Below, piece after piece: positions 40,587 to 58,087 of a stretch of 64,000 nucleotides of DNA (position 1 is the stretch's first letter; the number at the start of each line of letters is the position of its first letter). The position numbers were made by a program, and so were the translations under genes. This DNA comes from Jatrophihabitans sp. (GTDB lineage Bacteria; Actinomycetota; Actinomycetes; Mycobacteriales; Jatrophihabitantaceae): the NCBI RefSeq assembly GCF_036389215.1, contig NZ_DASVQG010000144.1, positions 4,300-68,299 of the forward strand. Direction: 5' to 3'. The notes beneath the pieces are model-generated. The model saw nothing but the letters and a program-made list of their open reading frames with translations, was not told the origin of the DNA and did not search any database.

Positions 40587-40996
40587 CCGTCCGGGCTGGG
40601 CGCACCCAGACTTGTGGCAAGAGCGAGGCTCGCACCCGGCTGGAGCACGCCCGCGCGTTCGCCGACACTGCCGAGCTGGCGCTGGACACCGAGAATGACG
40701 CCAGCCTGAACGTCTCCGCGTCGCTGGCGGTACTGGCCGGTATCGCATCCTCCGATGCTGTCTGCTGCGCCGTGCTGGGCAACCGGGCACGGGGCCAGAA
40801 CCACCGGGAAGCCGTAGACCTGCTGTCCGGTGTCGCAGCCGTCGGTGCCGAGATGAGCAAGAACCTCGCCCGCCTGCTTGATCTGAAGGACAACGCGCAT
40901 TACGGCGTCTTCTTTCTCAGCGAGACGAAGGCACGGCAGGCGGTGAAGTGGGCTCAGCGGATGGTGACCGCCGCGGAGACGGCCGTGCTGGGATGA
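40583..40996 (+). CDS. HEPN-domain protein (putative toxin)
   Basis: All-helical 137 aa, HREAVDLL and KDNAHY motifs; 4-bp overlap with the MNT gene. Confidence 0.75.
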   Translation: MTVRAGRTQTCGKSEARTRLEHARAFADTAELALDTENDASLNVSASLAVLAGIASSDAVCCAVLGNRARGQNHREAVDLLSGVAAVGAEMSKNLARLLDLKDNAHYGVFFLSETKARQAVKWAQRMVTAAETAVLG

Positions 40997-41036
40997 TCAG
41001 CAACTGCGGCCAGTCCAGGATGTCGCGAGACATCAG

Positions 41037-41348
41037 ATGGCGGAGGTGATCTTTGCCTACTCGAACTTCCGGCTTCCGGAGCTGCCGGGGAGGAGCACAG
41101 GCGGCCCTAGCTCGGAAGAACCCGGCTTGCTGGACCAATCGGCTTGCCGGGCACCTCTGCTGCTATCGCGCGATGACGGACCGCCGCCTGACACCTCTTG
41201 GCGGATCACAGAGCAGCAGCGAGCCGAGGTTCGCCGCCTTCATGCCGCAGGCCTTTCCATGACCAAGATCGCTCAGCAGACAGGAATGGCTTGGGCAACC
41301 GCTCGGTTGATCATCGATGCAGCAGCTGACTCGGTGGAGGCAGGTTAG
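41037..41348 (+). CDS. Small protein or remnant ending in a resolvase-like HTH
   Basis: ITEQQRAEVRRLHAAGLSMTKIAQQTGMAWATARLII. Confidence 0.5.
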   Translation: MAEVIFAYSNFRLPELPGRSTGGPSSEEPGLLDQSACRAPLLLSRDDGPPPDTSWRITEQQRAEVRRLHAAGLSMTKIAQQTGMAWATARLIIDAAADSVEAG

Positions 41349-41439
41349 TAGCTAAGTCGTCCTATGGCACCGACCGGATGCGCAGACCTGTCCCTCCTTG
41401 GGTGCATACTCGAAATGAACGAGTATGTGAGGAGTAGGA

Positions 41440-42669
41440 GTGACGGTCTTCGAGGAGGACGGCTTCGGCCGCGCCGATGACTTTGGTGAGGACATGACCG
41501 AGACCGGATTTGCACGAGAGCGGAAGGCGGACAGGACGTACCTGTCAAAGACGTTCCATATTGACCGAGAGACCTCCTCCGATTTCCGTCAGCCCGCCAG
41601 GATCATCCACAAGGTATTCGACTGTTACCGAGTTGCGCTTCGACGGCGAGGAGTGGACCGTCTACGAATCCGAGGCGGGAAGGGTTCAGCTGAAGTTGCT
41701 CGTGGTGCGCGAGCAAGGTCGCGTCAAGGAGCTCTGGGTACAGAAAGTGCCTTCTCCAGGTGTAGTGGGCAAGACGAAGATCATCCTCAACCTGCGTGAA
41801 CCAAACGTCACCAAGCTCATCGATTTGATACGCGGCCTTGACTACATAAAACTCGAAGGTGGAGCGACGGTACGTGTAGATGATTCGCTGATCCGGCAGG
41901 TCTTCGATGATCCGTTAGCTCTGGACCAGGCATATGCCAAGGACCGGGAGAAGTTCAAGAAGCTGATCCAAAACGACGTCGCTGCAAAGGACGTCATCGC
42001 ACTGGCGCACCGTCGCGAGCAAGTGGCGCTCTTCCGCCGGTACATTCAGGATCAGAAGTACTTTGAGTCAGTACGCGAGAACACGCCGGGTAAGTCTGCC
42101 GAGAAGGTCTGGCAGCTTCTGTTCGAGGCCAACCCGTGGATCTTGGGGCTGGGCCTCGGTACCAGGTTACTAACGTCCTGGGATGACGATCGCCTTGAAC
42201 AGATAGTCGCTGGCTCCAATGTCGCGGGTGCCGGCAAACGTGTCGATGCGTTCATGCAGACCGCTGGCCGAATCAGATCCATGGTGTTCGCTGAAATAAA
42301 GACGCATGCTACACCTTGTTACAGAAGGACTTCTACCGCTCAGGATGCTGGGCACCAACCGACGAAATGGCTGGTGAAGTTGCCCAGGTTCAGGGAACCG
42401 TCCACCGGGCTTCTATGCAGCTCAATGAACGGATCAGCCAGAAAGATGAGACTGGAGCTGAGGTTCCAGGTGAGTTTGGCTATTTATTAAAGCCGAAGTC
42501 GTTTCTTATAGTTGGTCAACTCAACGAGTTCGTGGGACCTGCAGGTGGACATAATGTTGACAAGGTTAGGTCGTTCGAGCTCTACCGACGCAATCTAGGC
42601 GAGCCTGAAATTATCACATTCGACGAACTCTTGGCGCGTGCTAATTGGATCGTTGAGTCCAACATCTAG
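41440..42669 (+). pseudogene. sduA: Shedu (SduA, DUF4263) anti-phage nuclease with two frameshifts
   Basis: Three consecutive frames join up: ..HKVFD / VTELRFDGEEW...FEANPWILG...RVDAFM..FAEIKTHAT / LLQKDFYRSGCW...AQVQ...IITFDELL. Shifts near 41622 and 42315. Confidence 0.85.
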
Positions 42670-42686
42670 ACCCTTGCCCTTAACTC

Positions 42687-43382
42687 CTACTTCTTAAACG
42701 CTGATGCCGCTGCTATTGCTGCCGCTGCCGCAGCGACGCCTGTCGCAAGGAACGAGACTAATGCGGTTAGGCTTTCACGCGTTTGGAAGCTGAGGCCAAA
42801 CGCACCGAACTCAAGCGTCAGATCATTTTCGCTAGATTCACGTGGATGCTCTTGAACATTGACGTTTTCGAGCGGCGCTGCAAGCGAACAGGTAGCTACA
42901 GAATCGACTAGTGCAGATACAGTAAGGGTCCCGCCATGGCGCAGCAGGCCCGGACCGACAAGGACGGTGTTACCGCTCAGACGAACCGGCAACAGGCCGT
43001 CTTTTTCCGTCGCCTCAGGTTCGAGTAGAGCGAGTACATTCGCGTTGAACGACAGAACGACGGGCCTACCTCCGTCAAAGGAAACCGTGCCAATGTCGGT
43101 CTTGCTGGCGTTTTCAAGACGCACCGTAGCGATGGCTGGGTGATCGACTGGATTGCCCTGCCACGTGACGACGAGTTCTCCCGTCAGACGATGGTCATTA
43201 CGAACCATTGGGACTACTGTTTGACTCCACCGAAGCGTGCGCCGGTTCCTGGCGATTACAAGCGTTCGCCACGCAAACCAACCAAGCGCGAGCGTTACGA
43301 TTACGAGGGCGACTGTTAGCCAGAACGTCCCGGAGACATATAGGTGGTCACTCGAACTTGACTCCTTCGGCGTGGTTGTCAC
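42687..43382 (-). CDS. Hypothetical membrane-anchored protein
   Basis: 231-aa ORF; N-terminal TM helix, beta-rich middle, hydrophobic C-terminus. Confidence 0.65.
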   Translation of the reverse strand: MTTTPKESSSSDHLYVSGTFWLTVALVIVTLALGWFAWRTLVIARNRRTLRWSQTVVPMVRNDHRLTGELVVTWQGNPVDHPAIATVRLENASKTDIGTVSFDGGRPVVLSFNANVLALLEPEATEKDGLLPVRLSGNTVLVGPGLLRHGGTLTVSALVDSVATCSLAAPLENVNVQEHPRESSENDLTLEFGAFGLSFQTRESLTALVSFLATGVAAAAAAIAAASAFKK

Positions 43383-43621
43383 GGAGTCCAGTGTCGACTA
43401 TTGCCACCACGCGGGCCAAGCGAGGGTCACGGGCATGTGGCGCACGGTTGTGCTCGTGTGGCGTGGACAAGGAGGTTCCTCGCGCATACAGAGGCCTCCG
43501 CGTGGATTGTGCACGCGCTGGGGGCCGAGCGGCGCGACCGTTTCCGTCGCCACGCTCCGCCCAAGCCAGGTCGTATTGGCCAATGGAACCAAGCAGCGTG
43601 CGGGCACCGTTGTTCCACTTG

Positions 43622-43796
43622 CGACGACGGACCAACACCGGACTCCTGCTCGCGCATCACGGAGCACCACCGTGCCGCCGGTTCGCCAGCTTCACGCCCC
43701 AGGCCTTTCCACCACCAAGCTCGCCAAGCTGACTGGGATGGCATGGTCTACTGCTCAGCTGATCATCGAGGCAGCAGCAGACTCGATGAGGGTTAG
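43622..43796 (+). pseudogene. Degenerate, frameshifted second copy of the 41171-41348 HTH segment
   Basis: DDGPTPDSCSRITEHHRA / VRQLHAPGLSTTKLAKLTGMAWSTAQLIIEAAADS aligns with copy 1. Confidence 0.75.
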
Positions 43797-43875
43797 TAAC
43801 GGTCCACTCCCCATAGCGACTGCCATCCTGCGCAACTCCCTTATGCAACTGCCTGCGTCCAGGCAGCGTGGCAGT

Positions 43876-44622
43876 CTAGGCGCCTAACAGGCGCGCCAAC
43901 ACAGACGCAAGGACGCTGGCACCGACGTTGGAGCCGAAGGAGCCGACGGCCTCAAGGATCCGACGTGCCGTCGATCGCTGCTCGTCGGGCCGATTGGGGT
44001 CATTCGCTACCTCCTGCAGAGCGTTGATCAGCGCATAGACGGCGGTCTCCGCTGAGGGCCATGCGCCCGCGCGGCGACGGCCCTCGCCGGAGACCGCATC
44101 TATCAGCCATGCGTTGCTGTTGGCGCCACGCCGGACACCAACAAGCAAACCATCGTTCTCTAGGGCGCGAATCCCGACCTGAACAGTTCCGAGGTCGAAA
44201 CCCGTCAGTTGGGCGATGTCCTCGGGGGCGATGTCTGGCGCACTTGGGTCCGCCTCATGCAGTTGGAGTGCCGCCCGCAAAATCCGTAGGTCCCGTCTGA
44301 TCCAGGTCTCGTCGTCGACGTTACCCATCACCATCGCCGAACCCGGTGTTGCAGCGCGTGGCGGATCGCAGTGTTCGATCCGAAGGTCAATATTCGCGAG
44401 TGACCCGCCTGGATAGACGGTTACGTCTCGCACGACCCAGTGCTCGACATTTCCATTCGCCAGTGTCGCGCGCAAGATATCGCCGCGTTGTACATCGGTG
44501 GTATCACCGGAGATGTGTGCTCGATCCCGATCTAGGAGCGCCCGGACCATGCCGTGGGGATGCAGGCTTTCAGACGGCCGGATGAGCTCTACGTCGGTCC
44601 CGTGAGTCTGAAAAAGGTCCAC
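43876..44622 (-). CDS. Hypothetical two-domain protein (beta-rich N-terminus, wHTH-like C-terminus)
   Basis: Likely GTG start 44622; IAPEDIAQLTGFDLGTVQVGIRALENDGLLVG resembles a winged helix. Confidence 0.6.
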   Translation of the reverse strand: MDLFQTHGTDVELIRPSESLHPHGMVRALLDRDRAHISGDTTDVQRGDILRATLANGNVEHWVVRDVTVYPGGSLANIDLRIEHCDPPRAATPGSAMVMGNVDDETWIRRDLRILRAALQLHEADPSAPDIAPEDIAQLTGFDLGTVQVGIRALENDGLLVGVRRGANSNAWLIDAVSGEGRRRAGAWPSAETAVYALINALQEVANDPNRPDEQRSTARRILEAVGSFGSNVGASVLASVLARLLGA

Positions 44623-44931
44623 GTGGCAAGCATGCCAGGGCACCCCAACAGCATGCGGACTGGGACGCCTTGACCATCCGCTGGTCATCATCGAGGCTGC
44701 AATTGATCCGGCGGAGGAGGTTCGTACGAGATTGATCAGGTGCCCCTGACCGAACAGCTTACGAACGAGCAATTCGGTAAAAATAACATAAAGCTTTCAG
44801 GGCTCCGAGACCAGAATCGGGCGGTCGTGGGCGAAGGCTGAGTGTGTCAATGTGGGTGCGGTACAAGGATTGCCGCCAAACGCTGTTTCGTCGATCCGGC
44901 TCATTATGACGCTTGGCGGTCGCGCTCAGAC

Positions 44932-45351
44932 CTACGGTGACCGTAGAGCAGGCGAGGGCAGCGCCAGATCACCTGCATGAAACAGGAGTCGCCGCCGGAT
45001 GCTGCCTCTGACAGCCACAGTTGCCCCACTCGAACCCTGTCCAGGAAAGAGCAATGCGTGCTCGACAGTCGCCTGGTCCACCCAGCGCGCCGCCAGGCTG
45101 AATGCTGCCAACTGCTCAAGGGCAAGCTGCTCCTCGCCACCGTCGGCGAGTGGGCGGTTTGTGCATCCGGTGTTGCGGACGGCCCAATACAGGCCTCTCC
45201 CAGCTCTGGCCCCCTGATGCACGTTCTTAAGGTTGTCGCTTCCATCGTTTGGCATGAGGCGCAGGCGCGGGTGATCGGCCTGTGGGTCGTTGAGGGAGAA
45301 CGCTTGCTGGAACAGCTTCGCCTCACCTGGATGGGTCAGCCTCAGCTTGGC
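44932..45351 (-). pseudogene. N-terminally truncated TIGR02391-like protein
   Basis: LFQQAFSLNDP...NVHQGA..GLYWAVRNTGC...EQLALEQLAAFSLAARWVDQA resembles the TIGR02391 C-terminus; in-frame TAG at 45352-45354 and no start. Confidence 0.55.
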
Positions 45352-45402
45352 CTACGTGTCGGCGGTCACGGGCTGGGCCGCGCGGCCATGACGGCCTGGT
45401 GA

Positions 45403-46066
45403 TGTGACTGGGTAGCGCAGATCGAGCAGGCGGTGGCCAGCCACTACCGAACGGTGACCTTGCCGGTCGACCTGCGGCAGGAACTCGCCGCCGGGTTTGA
45501 CAAGGCCGCCGAGGATCATCAGAACCAAGACGCCAGCCATAAGGTGCACTTGCGCAAACGACTGGCCGAGCTTGACCGCCAAGAGGACCGCTACATCGAA
45601 CTTGCCGCCGATCCCGACTGGCCGAAGGCCAAGCTCACCCAGAAGCTACGTGACATCCGCGACGAGCGAGCCCGACTCGAAGGGCGCCTGAACCAAACCA
45701 CCGCACAGCTCGATCAAGGCCAGGCGAACGCACGGCTCTTGCTGGACTACCCCTACGAGCTGTACCTCGGGTCAGAAGTTCAGGACCGCACGAAGCTCAA
45801 CCGGCTGCTGTTCAAGAAGGTCAAAATCGACGTAACTGAGGGTCATAACCCCCAAGTCACCAGTGATGAGATGCTTGAACCGTTCGCCTCGGTCGTCTAC
45901 TTCCGCCGCCAGCATGAGACGCCGACGGACAGCGGGCTGGGCACCGTCTACCTACGCGAAGCAGGCGGCGCTCCACTGAGGAGCCCCGCCTGCGACAACC
46001 ATCTGCTGTCCCTACTCGAACGGGCCCTCAGCGGCGAGCCTCTCAAGGGTTCAAGTAAGAACACAA
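45403..46066 (+). pseudogene. C-terminal remnant of a large serine recombinase/integrase
   Basis: IEQAVASHY, a coiled-coil (RKRLAELDRQEDRYIEL), RTKLNRLLFKKV; the frame runs into the tRNA antisense (GSSKNTMAEDRGFEP); no catalytic domain. Confidence 0.7.
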
Positions 46067-46868: not shown

Positions 46869-47690
46869 ATGACAGCAGGCACGAGTGCGCGACGAGTGGC
46901 CCGTAGCGACGGGTTCAAGGGTCTGGCCAAGTTGGGCTTCGCGGCCCGGGGCACCATCTACCTGCTTCTGGGCTTCTTCACCCTGCTGCTGGTGCTGGGC
47001 GAGCGTGCCCCGGAAGCGGATCAGCGGGGCGCGATGCAGGAGGTCGCCCGGCACAACGGTGGCTTCCTGCTGCTGTGGGTGATCGCGATCGGGTTCGTCG
47101 GCTATGCGCTCTGGCGCTTCTCCGAGGTGGCCTTCGGGGTGGTCGGCAAGGGCGACAAGGCCCGCGACGTCGGTCCGCGGCTGCAGTCGCTGATCCGGGG
47201 CGTGATCTATGCCGGCTTGGCCTTCAGCGCCTTCAACCTGCTGGCGCACGCTCGCAGCAAGAGCCAAGCCAGCCAGCAGCAGCTGCTGACCACCAAGGTG
47301 ATGCAACACTCCGCAGGCCGGTGGCTGGTCGGTATCGCCGGCCTCGTGGTGATCGGCGTCGGCCTGGGACTCATCTACGAGGGCGTCGCCCGAAAGTTCA
47401 AGGACCACTTCGCCTTGTCGGACATGCCGACGGCCAGCCGGCGGATCGTCTGGTTCCTCGGCACCTTCGGCATCACGGCGCGGGGCGTGGTGTTCAGCCT
47501 GGTCGGGTACTTCCTGATCCAGGCTGCTCTCGACTACGACCCGAAGAAGGCCCGAGGCCTGGACGGGGCGCTGCGCCGCACCGTCGCCGAGTCCGACACC
47601 GGCCGGCTGCTGGTCGGCGTCTGCGCGATCGGCCTGATCGCCTTCGGCCTGTACGCCTACGCCGAGGCCGCCTGGCGGCGTACCGAATGA
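46869..47690 (+). CDS. DUF1206 domain-containing membrane protein
   Basis: Three repeats: LAKLGFAARGTIY; GVIYAGLA; TARGVVFSLVG..DPKKARGLDGAL. Confidence 0.88.
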   Translation: MTAGTSARRVARSDGFKGLAKLGFAARGTIYLLLGFFTLLLVLGERAPEADQRGAMQEVARHNGGFLLLWVIAIGFVGYALWRFSEVAFGVVGKGDKARDVGPRLQSLIRGVIYAGLAFSAFNLLAHARSKSQASQQQLLTTKVMQHSAGRWLVGIAGLVVIGVGLGLIYEGVARKFKDHFALSDMPTASRRIVWFLGTFGITARGVVFSLVGYFLIQAALDYDPKKARGLDGALRRTVAESDTGRLLVGVCAIGLIAFGLYAYAEAAWRRTE

Positions 47691-48406
47691 GCCGACTGCA
47701 GCAGCAACCGGACCGGCAGCCGTCGCAGCGGCAGCCGGACCGGGGGCGGCAGCATCCTGGCTGGCTGGCCTCGGCGCTCTGGCTGCTCGCCGCGGCCGTG
47801 CTGATCTGGCTGGTGCTGGTGCTCATCGGGCACCTGCTCGGCCACCAGTGGAAGGACAGCGCCCTGGTCCGTTGGGACGCCTCGGTGGACCGGAACCTGG
47901 CCGCCCATCGCCGGGAACCATGGACCGAGATCACCCACCTGGCCACCTTCCTCGCCGAGACGATCACCGTCATCGCGGCCGGGCTGGTGGCCTTCGTGCT
48001 GCTGCGGCTGGCGCTCAAGCGCTGGCGTGAGCCGCTGTTCCTGGCGGTGTCCCTGATCGGCGAGGTGACGATCTTCGTCAGCACCACGCTGCTGGTCGAC
48101 CGGGCCCGGCCACCGGTGAAGCACCTGGACAGCGCCCCGCCTACGTCGAGCTTCCCGTCCGGGCACACGGCCGCCTCGGTAGCGCTGTACGGCGGGCTGG
48201 CGGTGATCGCCTGGCGGGTGGGAGCCGCCGCGTGGCTGCGGACGATAGCCACCGTGCTGGCGGTGCTGGTGCCGGTACTGGTAGCGGTGTCGCGGATGTA
48301 TCGGGGCATGCACTACCCCACGGACGTGATCGCCGGAGCGCTGCTGGCCTGCTGCTGGCTCGCCGTCACCAGCACCGTGATCCTGGGGCGGCGGCCAGCC
48401 TCGTGA
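47687..48406 (+). CDS. PAP2-family phosphatase
   Basis: RARP, SFPSGH, SRMYRGMHYPTDV. Confidence 0.92.
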   Translation: MSRLQQQPDRQPSQRQPDRGRQHPGWLASALWLLAAAVLIWLVLVLIGHLLGHQWKDSALVRWDASVDRNLAAHRREPWTEITHLATFLAETITVIAAGLVAFVLLRLALKRWREPLFLAVSLIGEVTIFVSTTLLVDRARPPVKHLDSAPPTSSFPSGHTAASVALYGGLAVIAWRVGAAAWLRTIATVLAVLVPVLVAVSRMYRGMHYPTDVIAGALLACCWLAVTSTVILGRRPAS

Positions 48407-49281
48407 GCGGCGTCGCCGCGGTGCTCAACCCCGCCAAGATCGAGGACCTGCCGGCGTTGAAGGCGGCCATCACCGAGCACTGCGGCGGCACCGAACCCGC
48501 CTGGTACGAGACCACCGAAGCCGATACCGGCGCCGGCCAGGCGAGCGCCGCGGTCGAGGCGGGCGCCCGGCTGGTGCTGGTCTGCGGCGGGGACGGCACG
48601 GTCGCGGCCTGCGCCGGGACGCTGGCCGGCACCGGGGTGGCGATGGCAATCGTGCCGGTGGGTACCGGCAACCTGCTGGCCCGCAACCTCGGCATACCGC
48701 TGGAGCTGCCGGAGGCACTCGACGTCGCCTTCGGCACCGCCGAGTGGGTGATCGACGTGCTGGAGGCAGCGGAGCAGCGGTTCGTGGTGATGGCCGGACT
48801 GGGTTTCGACGCCGCCCTGATCCGCGACACCGATGACGATCTCAAGGAGCGGCTCGGCTGGTTCGCCTACGTGGGCGGCCTGGCCCGGGCGCTGCGGCGC
48901 AGCCCGCATGCCCGGTTCACCATCACCATCGACGACGAGCTGCCGGTGAGCACCGAGGCGATCGGCGTGCTGGTCGGCAATGTCGGCCAGCTCGAGGCAG
49001 GCATCACGCTGATGCCCGAGGCAAGCCCCGATGACGGCGAACTCGATGTCCTGGTACTCGCTCCGCGCAGGGCGAAGGACTGGCCGGTGCTGGTCTGGCG
49101 GATCCTGCGCCGCCGTCCGGACGCCGGGCCGCAGGCCGACATCCGGCGCGGCAAGCGGGTCCGGATCTCCTCCGCCGTCGCCGTCCCGGTGGAATTCGAC
49201 GGTGACTTTCGCGGTGAGGCTACCGAGCTACGGGTCGAGGTCCTGGCCGCGGCACTCACCGTGCGATGCTTGCGGCCGTGA
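48403..49281 (+). CDS. Diacylglycerol kinase family lipid kinase
   Basis: VLNP, CGGDGTV, VPVGTGNLLARNLG, GLGFDA, EFDGD. Confidence 0.92.
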   Translation: MSGVAAVLNPAKIEDLPALKAAITEHCGGTEPAWYETTEADTGAGQASAAVEAGARLVLVCGGDGTVAACAGTLAGTGVAMAIVPVGTGNLLARNLGIPLELPEALDVAFGTAEWVIDVLEAAEQRFVVMAGLGFDAALIRDTDDDLKERLGWFAYVGGLARALRRSPHARFTITIDDELPVSTEAIGVLVGNVGQLEAGITLMPEASPDDGELDVLVLAPRRAKDWPVLVWRILRRRPDAGPQADIRRGKRVRISSAVAVPVEFDGDFRGEATELRVEVLAAALTVRCLRP

Positions 49282-50108
49282 CGGCTCGGGAGGAGAACGC
49301 GGCCGACGGCCGAGGAAAGGCCGGCGAGGCCGTGCCCCCGGGAAAGGCCGCGCCGACCGACGAGACGGCGCCGACCGACGAGCGGGAGAACGCCGGCCGT
49401 CGCCGGTTCGCCGGCCGGGCGGTGGTGGTCTTCCTGGTCGCCTTCGCCGCGGCCGTGCTGTTCCTGACGGTGCTGCTGCTGGTCACCTCGTCATCGGAGG
49501 TGCTGCTGCGGCTGGACCGCGCCACCGCCAGTGACCTGCACCGCTACGCGCTCCGCCATCCCGGGTTCACCTCGGCGATGCGAGGGCTCAGCAACTCGGG
49601 CAAGACGGTGGTCTGGTTCCTGGTGATGGCCCTGGTCGCCGGCTGGCTGCTCCGGCGCCGGCTGCGGCGGCTGGCGATCTTCGTCGTGGTGACCGTGGTG
49701 GGCAGCTCGTTGCTCAACAACGTGGTGAAGCTGGCGGTCAACCGGGCCCGGCCGCACCTGAGCGACCCGGTCGCGGTCGCGGCCGGCAAGTCCTTTCCCA
49801 GCGGGCACGCCCAGGCCGCGATCGTGGGTTACGGCGTGCTAGTGGCAGTCTTCCTGCCGATCATTAGCCGGCGCTGGCGGCCTGCGGCCATCGCCGGGGC
49901 GGCAGTGCTGGTGCTGCTGATCGGCTTCTCCCGGATCTCGCTCGGCGTGCACTACCTGTCCGACGTGATCGGGGCGTACCTGATCGGGACCGTATGGCTG
50001 ATCGGCATGATCAGCGCGTTCCGCACCTGGCGGCGCGAGGAAGGCAAGCCGGTCGCCGACCTGGACGAGGGACTGGAACCAGAACATCGCGAGCAGCTCG
50101 CGCCCTGA
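49266..50108 (+). CDS. PAP2-family phosphatase
   Basis: KLAVNRARP, SFPSGHA, SRISLGVHYLSDV. Confidence 0.92.
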   Translation: MLAAVTAREENAADGRGKAGEAVPPGKAAPTDETAPTDERENAGRRRFAGRAVVVFLVAFAAAVLFLTVLLLVTSSSEVLLRLDRATASDLHRYALRHPGFTSAMRGLSNSGKTVVWFLVMALVAGWLLRRRLRRLAIFVVVTVVGSSLLNNVVKLAVNRARPHLSDPVAVAAGKSFPSGHAQAAIVGYGVLVAVFLPIISRRWRPAAIAGAAVLVLLIGFSRISLGVHYLSDVIGAYLIGTVWLIGMISAFRTWRREEGKPVADLDEGLEPEHREQLAP

Positions 50109-50176: not shown

Positions 50177-52087
50177 TCAGCCACCCGCCGGCGAATGAGC
50201 CGGGTGAGCATCGTCGGTGACGGCCAGCACGGTGCCGTGCACGATCTCGACGAAGCTGCCCTCCGGTGGCAGGTTGCCGGTGCCGACGATCGCGGCCGGC
50301 ACGCCGGCTTCGCGTAACAGGATGCCGAGGTGGCTCAGCAGCGCGCCTTCTTCGAACAGGAAGCCGTCCACCACTCCGAGCAGCATCGACAGCACGGCGA
50401 TCGGCCGGGACACCGCGATGATCACCCCGGTGCCGTCCAGGCTGAGCCGCTGGCGCAGGTGGCTCAACAGCAGCGCCTCGTTCTCGGCCGAGACCGGCTG
50501 GGCGATGCTGATGATCGGCGCGATGCTCGACTCGGTGAGGATGTCGTCGATGCTCAGCACCTGCACCCGCCCGCTGGCCACGCCGGCGCTGAGCACCCGC
50601 GCGCCGGTCACGCCGTGTCCACCCTTCGGCGCGGCGGGCCCGGTGACCGGTGCGGAGTAGTCGACGAAGAGCAGGCTGCCGTCCTCAACCACCCACTCCA
50701 GGGTGGCTCGCGGGTGGATCCGCCGGGCATGCTCGCGCGTCGTGCCCTCCAGCGCCCTGGCCTGCTCCGGCCCCAGCAGCGCGTTCAACGCCTCGCCGGT
50801 GATCGGGTGCGCGCTGCCGAAACCGCGGTTGAGGGCCAGCAAGCCCTCCTCGGACGCCTCGACGTACACCGAGCCGTCGGTGGCCACGGTCGACAGCAGC
50901 GCCGTCTCGCCCCTGATGTACTCGCGGCACAGGAACGCGAAGTCACCCTCTCCGGGCGCGGCGTCGGCCAGCCGCCGGACCGTGTCGGCCAGCTCGGCAC
51001 TGCCGATGATGTACTGGCGCTCCGTCGGGCTGGAGTCGATGACCAGGCGGCCGGGTAGCTGCTTGCTCCAGGCGGTCAGCGGCTCGACAGGCCCCGTCCG
51101 GTCCCAGTTGGCCAGCCAGCCGCCGGGCACCCGGGCGCCCTGTGAGATCGCGATCGCCCGCGCGAGCCGGCGCTTGGCGCGAATCCTGGTGTACTCACCG
51201 GCGCACTCGCCCAGGACCAGGTCGTGCAGGTCGCCTTCGTAGAGCGGGGTGATCCGCACGCCGTCGGGGGCCGGCTGCCCGGTCAGGCCCGCGGTACGGG
51301 GCCGCACCTGCACTATCCACAGCAGCCGGCCGTCCCAGGCCCACTCGACGTCGTGCCCACCGCCGCCTTCGGACAGCGCCGCCAGCGCCGTCCGCAGCTG
51401 CTGCCGCCAGCCGTCGGCGGCCGAGGACCGGCTGAGGCGCTCACCGGTCGGCACCGCCAGGCCGGCGACCAGCCCGCTCGCGTGCCCGGGGGTCCATTCG
51501 AGGTAGCAGTCCCCGGACGGCTCGCTGAAGGCGACGCCCGCGACCTGCGGGGCGATCGCCCGCTGCACCAGCACGCTCATGTGGTCCGTGGCCGGCGGCC
51601 GGCCGATCCTTCGGTACTGCGCCAGCGCCTGGCGGCTGAACCCTGATCGCCAGACCTGCTCTACGGCCCGCACCAGATCGGGCTCGTCGACGTCGACCAC
51701 GCTGTCGAAGACCCCGGCGAAGCTCAGCGATGAGCCGTCCTCGTCCGCCGAACTGCTGCGCACGACGAGAACCGGGCCCAGCCTCAGCCGGTGTGCCAGG
51801 GCATGCAGTTGCCGCACCTGGCCGGCGCTGAACCGCACCCGGTCCAGCACCGCCTCGAGCCTTGTCAGCAGCGCCTCCAGCGCGTTCCGGGGCTGGCTGG
51901 TCAGTTCGGCGAGCAGCCCGTCGAGCTCTGACCGAAGTCCGGGCTGCATGCCCTGGCAGATCCAGCTGCCGGGTATGACGAAACCGGGTGGCACCGCGAC
52001 GTGCCCGTACTCGCGGGCCAGGCCGGCGGCCTTGTTGCCGTAGCTGCCGGCCATCCGAGCTTCAGCCAGTTCGGTGAGGGCAGTCAC
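50177..52087 (-). CDS. PPDK/PEP-synthase-like phosphotransferase (ATP-grasp + phospho-His swivel domain)
   Basis: GTG start 52087 overlaps the upstream stop; GNKAAGL, VPPGFVI, VRSSSADEDG...SFAGVFDS, VLVQ, DVEWA...VQVRP, and a His domain GALLSHLGILLREAGVPA. No pyruvate/PEP-binding barrel. Confidence 0.88.
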   Translation of the reverse strand: MTALTELAEARMAGSYGNKAAGLAREYGHVAVPPGFVIPGSWICQGMQPGLRSELDGLLAELTSQPRNALEALLTRLEAVLDRVRFSAGQVRQLHALAHRLRLGPVLVVRSSSADEDGSSLSFAGVFDSVVDVDEPDLVRAVEQVWRSGFSRQALAQYRRIGRPPATDHMSVLVQRAIAPQVAGVAFSEPSGDCYLEWTPGHASGLVAGLAVPTGERLSRSSAADGWRQQLRTALAALSEGGGGHDVEWAWDGRLLWIVQVRPRTAGLTGQPAPDGVRITPLYEGDLHDLVLGECAGEYTRIRAKRRLARAIAISQGARVPGGWLANWDRTGPVEPLTAWSKQLPGRLVIDSSPTERQYIIGSAELADTVRRLADAAPGEGDFAFLCREYIRGETALLSTVATDGSVYVEASEEGLLALNRGFGSAHPITGEALNALLGPEQARALEGTTREHARRIHPRATLEWVVEDGSLLFVDYSAPVTGPAAPKGGHGVTGARVLSAGVASGRVQVLSIDDILTESSIAPIISIAQPVSAENEALLLSHLRQRLSLDGTGVIIAVSRPIAVLSMLLGVVDGFLFEEGALLSHLGILLREAGVPAAIVGTGNLPPEGSFVEIVHGTVLAVTDDAHPAHSPAGG

Positions 52088-52602
52088 CGGAAGTTCCGGA
52101 ACAGCATGGACGCCCTGGGGCCGTTGGCGTGCTGGTACTTGCCGTCGTACAGCGCGATCTCCCCGACCGTGGTCCACCACATCATCTGGCCGATCTTCAT
52201 GCCCTCGTACACGATCACGTCGTGCGTCGCGTAGAGCTGCAGCGTCCATTGCCCGATGAAGCCGATGTCACCCAGCGGCGCCGACAGGTTGATGAACAGG
52301 CCGAGCCGTGCCACCGACGAGCGCGCCGCGAACGTGGGAACGTAGTGCTCGCTTCCCATCACCTCCCGAGTCGCGGCCAGGTACAGCCTGTTCGCCTTCA
52401 GCTGCAAGCCCTCGGGCGGGATCCGGATCTCCTCGGTGAGGTTCTCGCGGCTGGCGTCCAGCAGCTCGTCGGAGTACACGATCAGGTGGTCCGACAGCGT
52501 GAAGTTGTAGCTGTTGGGGTTCACCGCGCTCTCGTCGAACGGATCGATGATGATGCGGCCGGCCTCTCGCTCGCGGGCGATCTGCAGCCCGGACAGGATC
52601 AC
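52084..52602 (-). CDS. dcd: dCTP deaminase-like protein A (dUTPase-fold); keeps RSS..R but has Gln at the catalytic Glu position
   Basis: MILSG, IDPF, NPNSYN, AARSSVARLG, GDIGFIGQWTLQL, GMKIGQ, GKYQ. Family clear, activity uncertain. Confidence 0.85.
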   Translation of the reverse strand: MILSGLQIAREREAGRIIIDPFDESAVNPNSYNFTLSDHLIVYSDELLDASRENLTEEIRIPPEGLQLKANRLYLAATREVMGSEHYVPTFAARSSVARLGLFINLSAPLGDIGFIGQWTLQLYATHDVIVYEGMKIGQMMWWTTVGEIALYDGKYQHANGPRASMLFRNFR

Positions 52603-53123
52603 GATGCGACCTCGGTGCAGAGCCGGCTCTCGGTGACCGCGACCGAGTTGGCATACCGGCCGTTGTACTGCACCACGTCACCGTTGACGCTCCAGAACGC
52701 GACCTTGCCGATGCGCATCCCGCGGTGCAGCCGGATCGGCTGGGACACCCGGATCTCCAGCGTCCATCGGACGATCGCACCGGTGTGACCCAGCGGCGCG
52801 CTCACCTGGATCCAGACGCCCAGCGCCGCGATCGACAGGTTGCCGTACAGCTCGCACGCGTAGCGGGTGCTGCCGATGATCTCCAGCGTCTCCCCGAGAT
52901 ACAGCCGGTTGGGATACAGCAGCACGCCCTCGGCGGGAATCTCGACCGGTGCTATCCGTTCCAGCGGCCGGTGGGCGTCGTAGACCTCGTCGTCACAGCT
53001 GAGCAGCCGGTGCCCCAGCCGGAAGCCGTAACTGTTCTGCTCGACCTGGTCGGCCGTGAAGGGCTCGATGGCGATGACGCCGTTGCGGCGCTGCCGCGTG
53101 ATCTCGGCACCGGTCAGCAACAT
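52599..53123 (-). CDS. dCTP deaminase-like protein B; keeps the catalytic Glu but lacks RSS..R
   Basis: Start ATG 53123; MLLTG, IEPF, QNSYGFRL, YGNLSIAALG, WTLEI, GMRIGK, GRY. Confidence 0.82.
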   Translation of the reverse strand: MLLTGAEITRQRRNGVIAIEPFTADQVEQNSYGFRLGHRLLSCDDEVYDAHRPLERIAPVEIPAEGVLLYPNRLYLGETLEIIGSTRYACELYGNLSIAALGVWIQVSAPLGHTGAIVRWTLEIRVSQPIRLHRGMRIGKVAFWSVNGDVVQYNGRYANSVAVTESRLCTEVAS

Positions 53124-53725
53124 AGGACACCGGTCAGCAACTCGGCGCAGAACTCGCGCACGTGCTCGATCCCGTCGCGATTGTTGTCGAACTCGACGTC
53201 CCAGCCGATGTTGTCCAGCTGGAAGACCTGCTCGTCGTCGACGATGCTCAGGTCGTTGCGCGCGCGCAGCCGCTGATGGCGCACCGAGCGATCGCATCGA
53301 ACACGTATGAAGTAGAAGCCCAACTCGCGCAGCCGGGGCGCGTCGACGACGTGGTCACGCAGGTCGGCATTGATGACCACCGTGCCGGCGGGAACCGCGG
53401 CCAGTGACTGTTCGAAGCGCTCGACCAGCGCGGTCGGCCGGATCCGCCTGATGTGCCTGGCCAGATCCAGCATCAGTTGCTGGTCCTGCTGGTCGCTCGG
53501 TTTCGGCTCGGCGATCTCGTGGTACAGCCGGTTCTGCAGGTCGTGCAGCAGGGCCGCGAGCCCGATCACCTGGGACCGATGGCCAGCAGCGGCAAGTGAT
53601 TCGGTCAGCACGGCCGCCGTCGTGGACTTGCCGCTGCCGGTTTCGCCCACCAGGCAGATCCGGGACCGGCGCGGCGGCGACCCGAGCCGCCCGGCAGGCG
53701 CGGGGTCGTCAGCGCAGGCTTGCAT
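53114..53725 (-). CDS. P-loop kinase, dNMP-kinase/dephospho-CoA-kinase-like
   Basis: ICLVGETGSGKST, VVINADLRD, FIRVRC, lid RHQRLRAR, DVEFDN. Confidence 0.78.
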   Translation of the reverse strand: MQACADDPAPAGRLGSPPRRSRICLVGETGSGKSTTAAVLTESLAAAGHRSQVIGLAALLHDLQNRLYHEIAEPKPSDQQDQQLMLDLARHIRRIRPTALVERFEQSLAAVPAGTVVINADLRDHVVDAPRLRELGFYFIRVRCDRSVRHQRLRARNDLSIVDDEQVFQLDNIGWDVEFDNNRDGIEHVREFCAELLTGVLCC

Positions 53726-54872
53726 ATTGATCTCGCAGGAACGTCAACTTCGACTCGTGTCGCTGGTAGTTCTCGATCCCACGCTCGTCGAAGTAGGTAC
53801 TCATCAGCACCCGCAGCCGGTCGAGGTCCTGCCGGACACTGTCGAAGGTGGCGCCCGTCAGTGCCAGGGAGTAGGCGTACTCCATCTCGCACTGCGTCAG
53901 TTCGGCGGCGGCCGGGATCCGGCGGCCCGACCGGTCAATGACGATGCTGCGGTCGTAGGTGATGGCAATGACGTTGCCGCTCTCGATGGCCTCTACGTAC
54001 ACGTCGTAGCGAACGCGCCGGAAACTTGCGTTCCACGCGGGCGTGAGGCCCAGGACGTCGCGGAGGTAGGCCTCGTAGTCTGCGACCTCGACATTGCGCT
54101 TGCGCAGTTCGACGCGCTCGTCGGTGTCCTCTGTGTAGATCTTGCGCTTCACCGTATAGCGGCCGTCGGTGGTCGGGATGAAGGAGACGTAACCCACCTC
54201 CTCAGCCGGTTCCTCGATGGCATAGACATCGTTCAGGAAGTCCCAGGCCTGGATCTCCTCCTCCCGGAACTCGACGACGAAGCCGGCCAGCCCGCCGGAT
54301 CGGGCGAGCCGGAGCGTGTCGCGGGACAGGGCGAAGACGTCCGGATGCCCGGTGAGGGTGAACTTGTGTTCCAGTTCCACGTCCGGCTTCAGCTTCACCC
54401 TGAAACACAGGTGATTCGCGATCTTGAGGAAGTGCTCGTCGATTCCGGCCAGCAGATCCGGCACGGCGGAGGCGCGCGGCGAATGCTCACCGGGAAGGCG
54501 CAGGAACTTCGCGTGGCCGCGGTAGAGGTCGACCTGCGGGTACAGCTGCATCCGCGACAGCGAGGGCAGTTCCGGCCGGAGCAGCCCGATCGGCACGTTG
54601 CGGTCGTGATCGAGGACGGCCTGCGGCGAGACGGCCGACCGGTCGGTGACGGTCCCGCCGGAATCCAGCACGAGGGCCCGCGCATCAGGCCATCCGCGAA
54701 GATCCAGCGTGTAGCTCTGGGCGCCGTCGGTGGGGGGAGCGAGCGCCGCGGCCGGGCACTCCAGCAGTGTCACCTGCCATTCGGGGGGACGCCGGACGGA
54801 GGATCGCAGATCGTGGGATCCCACCACCAGCCACGCGGCTGGGCTCAACTCGTCGAGCACGCTGTCCTTCAA
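53709..54872 (-). CDS. CYTH/triphosphate-tunnel-metalloenzyme-like protein with unknown N-terminal domain
   Basis: ELEHKF (ExExK), YTVKRK, FRRVRY, TYDR, CEMEY, ESK. The start may be GTG 54860 (GAAGGA RBS). Confidence 0.72.
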   Translation of the reverse strand: MKDSVLDELSPAAWLVVGSHDLRSSVRRPPEWQVTLLECPAAALAPPTDGAQSYTLDLRGWPDARALVLDSGGTVTDRSAVSPQAVLDHDRNVPIGLLRPELPSLSRMQLYPQVDLYRGHAKFLRLPGEHSPRASAVPDLLAGIDEHFLKIANHLCFRVKLKPDVELEHKFTLTGHPDVFALSRDTLRLARSGGLAGFVVEFREEEIQAWDFLNDVYAIEEPAEEVGYVSFIPTTDGRYTVKRKIYTEDTDERVELRKRNVEVADYEAYLRDVLGLTPAWNASFRRVRYDVYVEAIESGNVIAITYDRSIVIDRSGRRIPAAAELTQCEMEYAYSLALTGATFDSVRQDLDRLRVLMSTYFDERGIENYQRHESKLTFLRDQYASLR

Positions 54873-54954
54873 TCACTCGGACCCGAAAGTCCACATCACT
54901 CGGACCCGAGGTCGTACGGCAGAAAGTTGCCAGAAAATATCACAACCTATGTGA
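54872..54954. promoter_or_regulatory. Direct repeat pair and palindrome upstream of the nucleotide-enzyme operon
   Basis: ATCACTCGGACCCGA at 54872-54886 and 54895-54909; TCACA-N5-TGTGA at 54940-54954. Confidence 0.5.
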
Positions 54955-54987
54955 AAGATGGACTTTTTCCTAGCCCTCTTCCAGGCC

Positions 54988-56262
54988 TCAGGCCGCGGGC
55001 AGCTCGTGCCCCTCGACGACTGTCCGGCTGAGGACCCGGCTGTGCACGGTCGCCGACACCGGCCTCAGCAGCGACGCGGCGACCACCATGACCGCACCCA
55101 GAACCAGCCATCCGTAGTCGCCGAAGAGGTGCAGCGACCCGGTGACCAGGAACGGCCCGATCAGGAGCGGGAACGAGACGTAGGCCGACCAGACGGACTG
55201 GTTGTGGGCGGTGAGGTCGTGCCGGCGCAAGCTCATCGACAGGCCCCAGGTTGCCGCCGAGGCGTACAGCTCGCCGACCGACAGCGCTACCACCGCCACC
55301 AGCAGGAGAAGTACTCCTGCCAGGCTGGTGGTGGTGGCGCTGGCGAAGAAGAGCAGGCAGGCCAGGCCCAGTACCGCACCGCCGCGCAGGCCGGCCCGCG
55401 ATGCCCCGGCGATGTCGGAGGAGCCACGACTGAGCCGAACCTGGAAGGCGATCGCCACGATCGTGTTCACCGACATCGCCAGCCCGATGAGCCACTGGTG
55501 GCTGTGGTAGTTGCCCAGGATCAGCAGCGGCAGCCCGATGGTGAGCAGGCTGGTGCACAGGAAGAGGGTTCCGCACAGCAGCCCGATGACCGCGAACCTG
55601 GCGCCCGGCGGCGGTGCCGGACCCTGCGCCGCCGCCCGTACCGGATCAGGCGGTAACCGGGTCGCCAGGGCGGCCGCCAGCACGAAGGACACCCCGTTGC
55701 CGGCGACGACCAGGTACAGGCTGAGCCGGCTCTGCTGGCCGACAAGGGCCGCTGCGGCAAGCAGGGACCCGACGGCGAAGGAGAGGTTGTAGACCGATCG
55801 GTTGTAGGCCGCGATCCGCACCCGGTCGTCCACCGCCGCGAAGGCGTACAGGACGACCTTTCGAACCGGGCTCTCCCAGCCGTCCATGACCAGGAGGAAC
55901 ACGCTCAGCACCAGGAAGGCGGCAAACCCGTGGATCAGCAGGTAGGCCGGGAAGGCCGCGCCCCGGATCAGATGGACCCAGATCAGCGTGCGGCGGTGCC
56001 CCAGCCGGTCCGACAGCCGGCCCAGTGGCACCCGGGTCAGCAGGCTCACCACGCCACCGAAGCCCAGCGCCGCTCCGATCTGCGTCGGTGACACCCCGAT
56101 CACGCGCACGAACAGCACCACGCTGACGGTGAGGAAGCAGCCCGTTCCGGCCGAGTCGACGGTGGTGATGAGGGCGTAGGCGCGTTCCTGCGGCGTTGGC
56201 GGCAGGACGCTGCGAAGCGCCCGGGCAACCCTCAACGGCCAGCTCCTCGGTGCGCGCGGCAT
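54988..56262 (-). CDS. MFS transporter
   Basis: About 12 TM segments; motif A-like GRLSDRLGHRR. Confidence 0.92.
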   Translation of the reverse strand: MPRAPRSWPLRVARALRSVLPPTPQERAYALITTVDSAGTGCFLTVSVVLFVRVIGVSPTQIGAALGFGGVVSLLTRVPLGRLSDRLGHRRTLIWVHLIRGAAFPAYLLIHGFAAFLVLSVFLLVMDGWESPVRKVVLYAFAAVDDRVRIAAYNRSVYNLSFAVGSLLAAAALVGQQSRLSLYLVVAGNGVSFVLAAALATRLPPDPVRAAAQGPAPPPGARFAVIGLLCGTLFLCTSLLTIGLPLLILGNYHSHQWLIGLAMSVNTIVAIAFQVRLSRGSSDIAGASRAGLRGGAVLGLACLLFFASATTTSLAGVLLLLVAVVALSVGELYASAATWGLSMSLRRHDLTAHNQSVWSAYVSFPLLIGPFLVTGSLHLFGDYGWLVLGAVMVVAASLLRPVSATVHSRVLSRTVVEGHELPAA

Positions 56263-56356: not shown

Positions 56357-58087
56357 TCAGCCGCTCGTCACCGTCTGGCAGCCCAGCGCTGAGTTGGCCC
56401 CCACGCCGATGTTCAGCCCGTACGCGCACAGCTGGTTCGTCCCGGCGGCCAGCGCAACGGTGTAGCTGAACCCGTGGGCGCCGGTGACCGACCAGGCCCG
56501 GTTGACGTCGGCGCGGACCAGCGAGGTCTGGCTCGAGGCAACCTGCTTGCCGTTGCGGGTGACGCTCACGCCGATCGCCTGGGCGGCGTTGCTGAAATCG
56601 AAGGCCCAGCCGGTGACCACGGCCTGGGTGCCCTGGACGGTCACCGAATCGATCCGGCCGAACGGGGACGTCCTCAGCTGTACCACCCGGCACCCTGCCC
56701 GGCCGGTGGAGCCCGGGCCCTTGTTGAGGGCATAGACGCAGACCGTGCTGCTGCCGGCCGGCACCCGGACGGTGACCGTGAAGCCGTGCAGGCCGGTGCC
56801 GTGGAAGAGGTTGTTGATGTCGCGGCGCAGGATGGTGGAGCCCACCGTGCCCGCCAGCGCGCCGTTCACCCGGGCCACCACCGTCAGCGGGGCGTCCGGG
56901 GCGTCGTAGTCGAACGACCAGCCGGTGAGGGTGACGACACTGCCCTTCTGCACGACCTGGTCGACGTAGCCCACCGGAACACCGGGCAGCGGCACGCTCC
57001 GGCAGCCGATCTGGGTGTAGTGGCCGGCGCCCAGGTTCATCGCGTAGGCGCAGACGGTGTTGGCGCCGTTGTTGAGCTTGAGCGACGTGGTGTAGCCGTG
57101 GTTACCGGTGATCTTGTAATAGGCGTTGACGTCCGGGCGCGGCACGGTCGTCTGGACGTAGCTGACCGGGGTGCCGTTGACGTGGAACCAGATCCGCACG
57201 CCGCTGGTGGTGGCGTTCGGGTCGAAGGCCCAGCCGCTGATCTTCAGGTAGCGCCCGTACAGCCGCCAGACGTCCACCCTGCCCAGCGGGTCGTCGTGGG
57301 CGATCCGGCCGCCCGGCATCAGCAGCTTCGCCTCGCCGGTCACGATGCCGGGGATAGAGCCGTAGCTGCCGCCCTGGGTGAGGATCACCACCGCGTACCG
57401 GTCGCCGTTGACCAGGCCGGTGGAGTTGTAGGCAGGCTGCCAGGACGGGTTGTCGCCGCCCCAGCCCTGCTTGACGGCCGCGCCGGTGGTGGCGCTGGGA
57501 ATGCCGAAGAACTGGTAGGTGCCGTCGGAACCGTAGCGGGTCGCGTGGTGCATGGCGTTGCCCAGCCAGTTCCAGATCGCCGGGCGGTGCCGGACCTTGT
57601 TGTAGAAGGTGGCCATGCCGGCAGCCGTGATCCGGGTGCCGCCCCACCAGCCCGACCGCAGCGGGGGCGCGCCCAGGTTGGGAATGTCGAGCGCCTGCTT
57701 GATCCAGGTGATCAGGCCGTCACCACCGGTCCGGCCGTAGAGGGCGCTGGCGGAGGCGTCGTCGGACTGGGTGATCATCTTGTACGCGGTGGTCTGGTTC
57801 CAGCCGGTCATCTGCCCGGTCATCAGCAACCGGGTCGCGATGAACACCTTCATCACCGACTCGGAGGCGTAGTAGCTGTTGTAGTCACCTGCCCCGCTGA
57901 ATGTCCCGGTCTGGGTGTCGATCACCGCCACCGCCGATCGGTAGCCGTGCTGCCGGGCATAGTTGACAGCATTGGTCGCCTGGCTGCCGACCGAGGCCGC
58001 AGCCGGCGCGGGCACCGTCACCGCACTGATCAAGCCGATCACCAGAGCCAGTCCGCTGGCTCCGGCCAGCACCGCCTTTACGCGCAT
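56357..58087 (-). CDS. Secreted class-A beta-lactamase-like serine hydrolase with three C-terminal beta-rich repeats
   Basis: Signal peptide; SVMK (SxxK), SDD, KQGW; repeats of G.VD...GWAFD...R.DVN...G.HG. Confidence 0.8.
   Translation of the reverse strand: MRVKAVLAGASGLALVIGLISAVTVPAPAAASVGSQATNAVNYARQHGYRSAVAVIDTQTGTFSGAGDYNSYYASESVMKVFIATRLLMTGQMTGWNQTTAYKMITQSDDASASALYGRTGGDGLITWIKQALDIPNLGAPPLRSGWWGGTRITAAGMATFYNKVRHRPAIWNWLGNAMHHATRYGSDGTYQFFGIPSATTGAAVKQGWGGDNPSWQPAYNSTGLVNGDRYAVVILTQGGSYGSIPGIVTGEAKLLMPGGRIAHDDPLGRVDVWRLYGRYLKISGWAFDPNATTSGVRIWFHVNGTPVSYVQTTVPRPDVNAYYKITGNHGYTTSLKLNNGANTVCAYAMNLGAGHYTQIGCRSVPLPGVPVGYVDQVVQKGSVVTLTGWSFDYDAPDAPLTVVARVNGALAGTVGSTILRRDINNLFHGTGLHGFTVTVRVPAGSSTVCVYALNKGPGSTGRAGCRVVQLRTSPFGRIDSVTVQGTQAVVTGWAFDFSNAAQAIGVSVTRNGKQVASSQTSLVRADVNRAWSVTGAHGFSYTVALAAGTNQLCAYGLNIGVGANSALGCQTVTSG

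Follow-up and report, generated by a model that had tools for sequence, protein, structure and literature searches.

The window analyzed here is a 64,000-nucleotide (nt) stretch of contig NZ_DASVQG010000144.1 from Jatrophihabitans sp. On its minus strand, at positions 50177–56262, there are six genes in head-to-tail order, and two of these encode adjacent paralogs of the DCD (dCTP deaminase) fold, termed DcdA and DcdB. The catalytic motifs of this fold are divided between the two proteins, and comparative data suggest that they probably act together in a mixed trimer. The host contig is of the high-GC actinobacterial type, with a guanine plus cytosine (GC) content of about 0.66–0.72 at the region, and the nearest relatives of the region are Jatrophihabitans-like genomes. 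The window sequence was matched in metagenomic DNA runs only (biocrust and soil); a biocrust run contains it.

The first gene of the operon (54988–56262) encodes an MFS transporter (MFS_1, E-value = 4.2e-20), a putative exporter that is kept in close relatives (L001–L007). It is followed at 53709–54872 by a gene for a protein of 383–387 amino acids (aa) with no Pfam match, which has a C-terminal domain similar to that of the triphosphate tunnel metalloenzymes (TTM/CYTH); its likely true start is at 54860, which gives 383 aa. The third gene (53114–53725) encodes a P-loop nucleoside/nucleotide-kinase-like protein of 203 aa (AAA_18, E-value = 3.5e-8). DcdB (52599–53123; Pfam DCD, E-value = 1.6e-23) has an ATG start and a chain length of 174 aa, the same as that of a 100% identical database copy (P0121). 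DcdA (52084–52602; Pfam DCD, E-value = 4.7e-34) has a GTG start and a chain length of 172 aa. The last gene (50177–52087) is in an open reading frame of 690 aa and encodes an enzyme that resembles phosphoenolpyruvate (PEP) synthase and rifampicin phosphotransferase, with a PPDK_N domain (E-value = 1.8e-25) and a PEP-utilizers domain.

Consecutive genes overlap. The overlap between the tunnel protein gene and the kinase gene is 17 nt, and that between the kinase stop and the ATG start of dcdB is 10 nt. The dcdB stop and the dcdA GTG start overlap in the sequence GTGA, and GTGA is also the overlap between the dcdA stop and the phosphotransferase-like gene, whose likely start is the GTG at 52087. 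From the sequence, this layout appears typical of a translationally coupled operon. A 14-nt exact direct repeat, GTTGCTGACCGGTG, is present in two copies 6 nt apart at positions 53108–53141 of the minus strand and spans the kinase stop and the dcdB start. As a result of this repeat, the C-terminus of the kinase (ELLTG) and the N-terminus of DcdB (MLLTG) encode the same peptide.

Motifs of DcdA and DcdB

A preliminary description of this DNA had placed two adjacent dCTP deaminase paralogs at positions 52084–53123. Both open reading frames were confirmed on the minus strand, and both proteins match Pfam PF22769 (DCD), with 118 bits for DcdA and 84 bits for DcdB (cutoff 27). The two aa sequences display 39% identity to each other (E-value = 2e-41). 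They share with E. coli Dcd (EC 3.5.4.13; structures 1XS1 and 4XJC) the DCD/dUTPase jelly-roll fold, the order of motifs and a similar chain length. Unlike E. coli Dcd, DcdA and DcdB each lack the combination of Ser/Arg and Glu, both have another residue in place of the motif I Asp, and they occur as a conserved pair in an operon that is not a housekeeping operon. Their scores are also below the cutoff of the dCTP deaminase equivalog model TIGR02274 (92.8 bits), with 72.4 bits for DcdA and 49.0 bits for DcdB. The trimeric dUTPase model NF002598 (cutoff 130) gives 23.7 bits with DcdA and no match with DcdB, and the C-terminus of DcdA is of the DCD type, Y.GKY (YDGKYQ). Databases annotate both genes as “dCTP deaminase”; this annotation is probably wrong for both.

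Motifs were placed by alignment to the solved dCTP deaminases and DCD-DUT enzymes 4XJC, 2QLP and 1OGH. Motif I, canonically SxD (4XJC, 2QLP), is NPNSYNF in DcdA (Asp to Asn) and NSYG in DcdB (Asp to Gly). Motif II, canonically GRSSxGRLG, is ARSSVARLG in DcdA and a degenerate YGNLSIAALG in DcdB. Motif III, canonically D...TLE, is LGDIGF...WTLQL in DcdA and SAPLGHTGA...WTLEI in DcdB, and motif IV, canonically IGQ, is IGQ in DcdA and IGK in DcdB. The strings AARSSVARLG and WTLQL of DcdA and YGNLSIAALG and WTLEI of DcdB, which had been pointed out earlier, are present and align with the GRSSxGR motif and with the Glu of TLE.

DcdA keeps the Ser and Arg residues of motif II and the Asp of motif III, and it has Gln at the position of the deaminating Glu (Glu138 in E. 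coli). DcdB keeps the deaminating Glu and has no equivalent of Ser111 and Arg115; its motif III Asp is changed to His and its motif IV Gln to Lys. Equivalents of Ser111/Arg115 and of Glu138 are found together in neither polypeptide. The same is true of the set that characterizes the bifunctional DCD-DUT enzymes, i.e. motif III Asp, Glu and RSS..R in one chain. DcdA and DcdB are referred to below as D/Q-type and H/E-type, respectively.

Conservation of the divided motifs

In a scan with each species represented by one genome, 230 stretches were confirmed to encode a DcdA-type relative; locus counts given here are for the best 80 of these. Both genes, with the same split, are present in 76 of the 80 species loci; the remaining four, which lack dcdB, are on truncated contigs. 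DcdA and DcdB are co-clustered in 76 of 76 informative loci, and no locus with DcdA alone or DcdB alone was seen among the 80. The loci are from Actinomycetota, Pseudomonadota (Pseudomonas, Vibrio, Rhodobacteraceae and Mesorhizobium), Bacillota (Paenibacillus), Chloroflexota, Chlamydiota, an Acidobacteriota metagenome-assembled genome, and others.

Among the matches listed, RSS..R, Asp and Gln are found in 121 of 121 DcdA homologs, and all DcdB homologs have the Glu and the His, with varying residues at the positions of Arg110, Ser111 and Arg115. The Q/E and RSS/degenerate split, first described from this one pair, is thus upheld by alignment of the homologs and by the 76 loci. Conservation by column was determined from 196 DcdA and 140 DcdB sequences with a threshold of at least 95%, and motif signatures were read from columns based on a hidden Markov model. 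This gives 61 conserved positions in DcdA and 41 in DcdB. Motif III of DcdA (LGDIG..G.WT.QL) is invariant. In DcdB, His113, Glu123 and Lys140 are each conserved at the threshold, Lys140 being present in 140 of 140 sequences, and motif II is variable. Lys140 was gained at the position of the motif IV Gln, and Ser97 is kept. The half of DcdB that corresponds to the neighbor-subunit half of a site is changed throughout (Asp to Gly in motif I, loss of motif II, Gln to Lys in motif IV), and the His and Glu of the pocket are invariant. Identity across phyla is 45%–50% for DcdB vs. 60%–65% for DcdA; DcdB therefore evolves faster. Judged from these alignments, the split is conserved and is not a product of chance or decay.

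More distant tandem DCD pairs also show the division. D/Q-type and H/E-type members (Q/E in one case), both with motif II, are found at four loci. The pair at L081 (4588–5624) adjoins a radical S-adenosylmethionine (SAM) enzyme and a His-phosphatase, and that at L082 (5202–6265) adjoins an aminoacyl-tRNA-synthetase-like enzyme and a carbamoyltransferase. A third pair is on a Streptomyces plasmid (L084, 9444–10525), together with an Erm-like rRNA methyltransferase, a TauD dioxygenase, glycosyltransferases, an aminoacyl-tRNA-synthetase-like enzyme and radical SAM enzymes; this cluster looks like a nucleoside-antibiotic pathway. The fourth is on a Rhizobium etli plasmid (L085, 8496–9525). As the division is found in distant pairs in which both members have motif II, it appears to be old and selected. 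DcdB would then have lost motif II later, in the lineage to which this window belongs. Representatives of 50%-identity clusters near DcdA display all of the signatures D/E, D/Q and H/E, the last of these both with and without motif II. With related tandem DCD pairs in clusters that resemble nucleoside-antibiotic pathways, the module may be a handle for genome mining.

An exhaustive HMMER search yielded two proteins, P0251 (532 aa) and P0258 (549 aa; L083, 1114–2712), that each hold three DCD domains and have 46% identity to each other. In both, domain 1 has the Asp and the Glu and no motif II, domain 2 is degenerate, and domain 3 keeps RSS..R and the motif IV Gln and has a dead motif III. From these sequences, none of the domains could make up a site by itself. 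P0251, P0258, P0293 and P0395 are single polypeptides with three (or two) DCD domains and complementary motif loss, on low-GC metagenomic contigs. Their sequences appear to represent covalent pseudo-heterotrimers of the dCTP deaminase branch.

A proposed mixed trimer with composite sites

Proteins of the DCD, DCD-DUT and dUTPase families have a common trimeric core with three sites at the clefts between subunits (PMC4827122). In trimeric dUTPases the catalytic cavity is formed by one subunit's motif III together with motifs I, II and IV of the adjacent subunit (PMC12524310). This agrees, for the dUTPases, with the earlier statement that the motifs come from adjacent subunits. The DcdB pocket is invariant in a chain that has neither the Ser and Arg residues nor the motif for phosphate binding, so another chain should supply the missing half, and DcdA holds this half invariant. 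Retention is complementary: one unit retains motif III and the other retains motifs II and IV, and this is conserved both in DcdA/DcdB and in P0251 and P0258.

The reading that we favor, with a probability of about 0.55, is that DcdA and DcdB are anciently duplicated subunits of the DCD fold that assemble as a mixed trimer, which would be the core of a biosynthetic operon. A stoichiometry of two DcdA to one DcdB (A2B) best fits the conservation pattern. It is favored over AB2 because AB2 would leave the invariant DcdA pocket without a complete partner. In an A2B trimer, the H/E site and the D/Q site would each be present once in complete form, and the third site would be remodeled.

At the DcdB-to-DcdA interface, the nucleobase pocket of DcdB (motif III, His113 and Glu123) would be completed by Arg94, Ser95, Ser96, Arg99 and Gln139 of DcdA. 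This would be the sole site with the full Ser/Arg/Glu deaminase triad. A change of the motif III Asp to Asn abolishes dUTPase turnover and leaves binding unaffected (PMC4827122). Because of this effect, the DcdB pocket should not hydrolyze a triphosphate, and the Asp to His change in DcdB would be expected to block dUTPase-type hydrolysis at the DcdB-to-DcdA site.

The DcdA pocket keeps the Asp and has Gln in place of Glu. The E138Q variant of E. coli Dcd was reportedly found by Johansson and co-workers in 2005 to be without detectable activity, and for this reason the DcdA pocket should not deaminate. It may be a pyrophosphatase-type or binding site that is coupled to the PEP-synthase-like phosphotransferase. 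In several independent clusters a DcdA-type domain is fused at the C-terminus to a PPDK-like enzyme (P0249, P0250 and P0253–P0257), and these natural fusions suggest that DcdA is functionally tied to the phosphotransferase-like enzyme. In another fusion protein (P0270), a HAD hydrolase and a P-loop kinase are joined to a D/E-type DCD domain. The substrate of the DcdA/DcdB pair would be a pyrimidine nucleoside triphosphate, supplied by the co-encoded kinase.

The idea that the two proteins hold complementary halves, put forward in the preliminary description, stands in part. Motif III and the Glu of DcdB together with motifs II and IV of DcdA would give one complete site, and the layout of the triple-DCD proteins matches this. 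DcdA is not a degenerate half, as its motif III is invariant. The related idea of two dead halves is doubtful for DcdA: the Gln and His residues are selected in ancient pairs and are not losses, and DcdB has gained an invariant Lys. To judge from its conserved motifs, DcdA by itself may well catalyze a different reaction. The proposal of a heteromer itself is strongly supported by sequence comparison and is unproven.

The simplest chemistry would be that of a split bifunctional DCD-DUT enzyme, with a deaminase-type site (the DcdB pocket plus the DcdA half) and a pyrophosphatase-type or binding site (the DcdA pocket). Given the invariant Gln, His and Lys residues and the altered motif I, the chemistry could differ or the substrate could be non-standard. 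Either new chemistry or a split deaminase/pyrophosphatase is likely from the residues conserved. Among the closest solved relatives are the DCD-DUT enzymes of M. jannaschii (1OGH) and M. tuberculosis (2QLP). These have the Glu for deamination and the Asp for hydrolysis, which in the present pair are spread over DcdA and DcdB. In the DCD-DUT enzymes the three sites are identical and Asp, Glu and RSS..R all come from one type of chain, in contrast to the D/Q and H/E combinations found here, and the pair would at best be a split version of DCD-DUT.

A comparable arrangement is found in the monomeric dUTPase of herpesviruses (Epstein-Barr virus) and in the single-chain, pseudo-heterotrimeric dUTPase of Drosophila virilis, where the dUTPase-fold unit has been duplicated and a single site receives motif III from one unit and the other motifs (I, II and IV) from a second (PMC12524310). 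Duplication followed by complementary motif loss, as in the herpesvirus enzyme, is the logic proposed here for DcdA and DcdB. Unlike these fused proteins with dUTPase chemistry, DcdA and DcdB belong to the DCD branch and are encoded by two separate genes in bacteria, and their replacement residues Gln, His and Lys are invariant. If the mixed trimer is correct, the pair would be a bacterial, unfused counterpart of the herpesvirus solution. It would also be a conserved version of DCD with two genes, the catalytic residues being divided between the paralogs. To our knowledge, characterized dCTP deaminases and DCD-DUT enzymes are all homotrimers with three identical sites, and within the DCD branch DcdA/DcdB would be the first case of a heteromer. 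A full-text literature search on related terms found no description of the pair or of the operon.

Several points weigh against a mixed trimer. That motif II and the Glu of a DCD site come from different subunits is a view carried over from the dUTPases and the triple-domain proteins. An AlphaFold2 (AF2) prediction of P0251 from a two-sequence alignment was uninformative, with a mean predicted local distance difference test score (pLDDT) of 47.6 and a predicted template modeling score (pTM) of 0.29. The DcdA pocket is more conserved than that of DcdB and than expected of a dead half-site. In Streptomyces and related actinomycetes, DcdA and DcdB are 2.5–9.6 kb apart within the same cluster. The distant D/Q and H/E pairs, with motif II in both members, could be two homotrimers that act in sequence.

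The last three of these points are also in line with an alternative that we regard as unlikely, in which DcdA and DcdB form separate homotrimers that carry out consecutive steps. The DcdA homotrimer would be a Gln-type nucleoside triphosphate pyrophosphatase, or a nucleotide binder for the fused phosphotransferase. The DcdB homotrimer would be remodeled (His, Glu, Lys) for a substrate without a triphosphate. DcdA does retain all motifs except the Glu, with its 61 highly conserved positions, and the invariant Lys140 and the kept Ser97 of DcdB suggest remodeling over decay. A homotrimer of DcdB, however, would be without the Ser and Arg for DCD chemistry and without the phosphate-binding motif II. 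The absence of single-gene loci among the 80, and the composite sites between domains that the triple-domain relatives show for this fold, also argue for the mixed trimer over separate homotrimers.

The faster evolution of DcdB and the changes in its motifs I, II and IV would also be expected if DcdB were a non-catalytic pseudoenzyme subunit, either a scaffold or an allosteric sensor of a catalytic DcdA, with a pocket that only binds a regulatory nucleotide. Trimers of the DCD family communicate allosterically via a central-channel loop (PMC4827122), and the loop, SAPLG, is identical in DcdA and DcdB. Conservation of His113 and Glu123 over large distances is, however, more than ligand binding usually needs, and a pseudoenzyme role for DcdB appears improbable.

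Operon partners and neighboring genes

The other genes of the operon recur with the mixed-trimer candidates. The phosphotransferase-like gene is present in 78 of the 80 loci, the kinase gene in 74 and the tunnel protein gene in 69, and all five core genes (these three with dcdA and dcdB) are found in 66. This flags a five-gene core of a kinase, two DCD paralogs, a triphosphate-tunnel protein and a His-phosphotransferase.

The protein encoded at 53709–54872 has no Pfam or NCBIfam match by sequence, the Pfam CYTH family included. It has an invariant ExExK motif (E162, E164 and K166) and ladders of Arg and Glu residues. Its AF2 model has a pLDDT of 91, and the C-terminal region of about 230 residues has the form of an eight-stranded TTM/CYTH tunnel domain. 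Foldseek gives the TTM/CYTH structures 7NS9, 3BHD, 5A60 (YgiF), 1YEM and 2EEN at a probability of 1.0. From the modeled fold and the ExExK motif, the protein carries a triphosphate-tunnel-metalloenzyme (CYTH-like) domain. Residues 1–125 are a beta-rich N-terminal domain, also modeled with confidence; the structural matches are due to the C-terminal domain. Two tunnel-protein paralogs are found side by side in several genomes (L011, L017, L065).

The kinase shows weak matches to nucleoside and nucleotide kinase families, to thymidylate kinases and to the anti-phage dCTP deaminase, in the last case to its kinase part. The phosphotransferase-like enzyme has an ATP-grasp PPDK_N domain, a middle domain without a family and a C-terminal swiveling phospho-His domain, in which the catalytic His is aligned (LSH vs. 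TSH). The PPDK_N domain and the swiveling domain with its conserved His are as in rifampicin phosphotransferase and PEP synthase. It differs from these enzymes in its scores, which are far below all equivalog cutoffs, and in its middle domain.

Exporters in the clusters of other phyla are of the MFS, ABC, TauE and EamA types. The Paenibacillus cluster has an MFS gene, two ATP-grasp amino-acid ligases, a second tunnel-protein paralog, a nucleotide pyrophosphatase and an RNPP regulator. That of Pseudomonas has ATP-grasp, TauE, EamA, metallophosphoesterase and aminotransferase genes; that of Streptomyces has HAD, phosphodiesterase, DUF6001, DUF6031 and SRPBCC genes; and that of Chlamydiota has MFS and ABC exporters. 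As the enzymes all handle phosphorylated nucleotides and exporters recur, the operon appears to be for biosynthesis of an exported nucleotide-derived metabolite. The triphosphate-tunnel enzyme and the exporter would both be part of the pathway that yields this product. From its gene content, the operon looks biosynthetic rather than defensive.

A more far-reaching form of the mixed-trimer proposal may be considered, and it is doubtful. Here DcdA and DcdB would obligatorily form a heterotrimer, with two composite sites that differ in their chemistry. Rather than simple deamination of dCTP, this trimer, together with the phospho-His enzyme, would catalyze a new reaction at C4 of a pyrimidine nucleoside triphosphate, for example phosphoryl activation and then exchange or hydrolysis. 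The reaction would be the committed step for an undescribed, widespread family of exported nucleotide-derived natural products, and the tandem DCD module of D/Q-type and X/E-type members would have been reused in several unrelated nucleoside biosynthetic clusters.

That the operon is instead an anti-phage system for nucleotide depletion or signaling, with the DCD pair depleting dCTP on infection, is very improbable: its patchy distribution across phyla, plasmids included, the weak similarity of the kinase to the N-terminal region of anti-phage dCTP deaminase (NF041025, E-value = 6e-5; PADLOC dCTPase, E-value = 3.8e-5) and a Shedu-like gene about 8 kb away would be in accordance with defense, but the kinase match is 22 bits vs. 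the NF041025 cutoff of 400, phage genomes hold only distant canonical dCTP deaminases, and the recurrent exporters, ATP-grasp amino-acid ligases, aminotransferase, phosphatases and pathway regulators are typical of biosynthesis. The PADLOC models gave no match for DcdA, DcdB, the TTM protein or the PPDK-like protein, and a defense system was rejected as the main explanation for this reason. In contrast to the anti-phage dCTP deaminase (NF041025; PADLOC dCTPase), where DcdA and DcdB have no counterpart by PADLOC match, the weak similarity here is confined to the separate kinase. A phage origin was also rejected, as the canonical dCTP deaminases from phage genomes are only about 30% identical.

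The genes around the operon are of other types. Just upstream of it, at 56357–58087 on the minus strand, is a gene for a 576 aa protein with a signal-peptide-like N-terminus and no Pfam match. This protein has three internal repeats of the module GW(A/S)FD...V.R.D(V/I)N. Directly downstream of the operon on the opposite (plus) strand, at 47075–50108, there are two PAP2 phosphatase genes and a diacylglycerol-kinase-like gene.

The segment at 39936–46000 has a lower GC content (0.58–0.63 vs. about 0.70) and includes genes at 39936–40586 and 41510–42490, both on the plus strand. Genes for a Shedu SduA_C-like nuclease and a nucleotidyltransferase are located in it, as are several open reading frames without a family. 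This segment is probably a small acquired defense island, situated about 8 kb from the operon.

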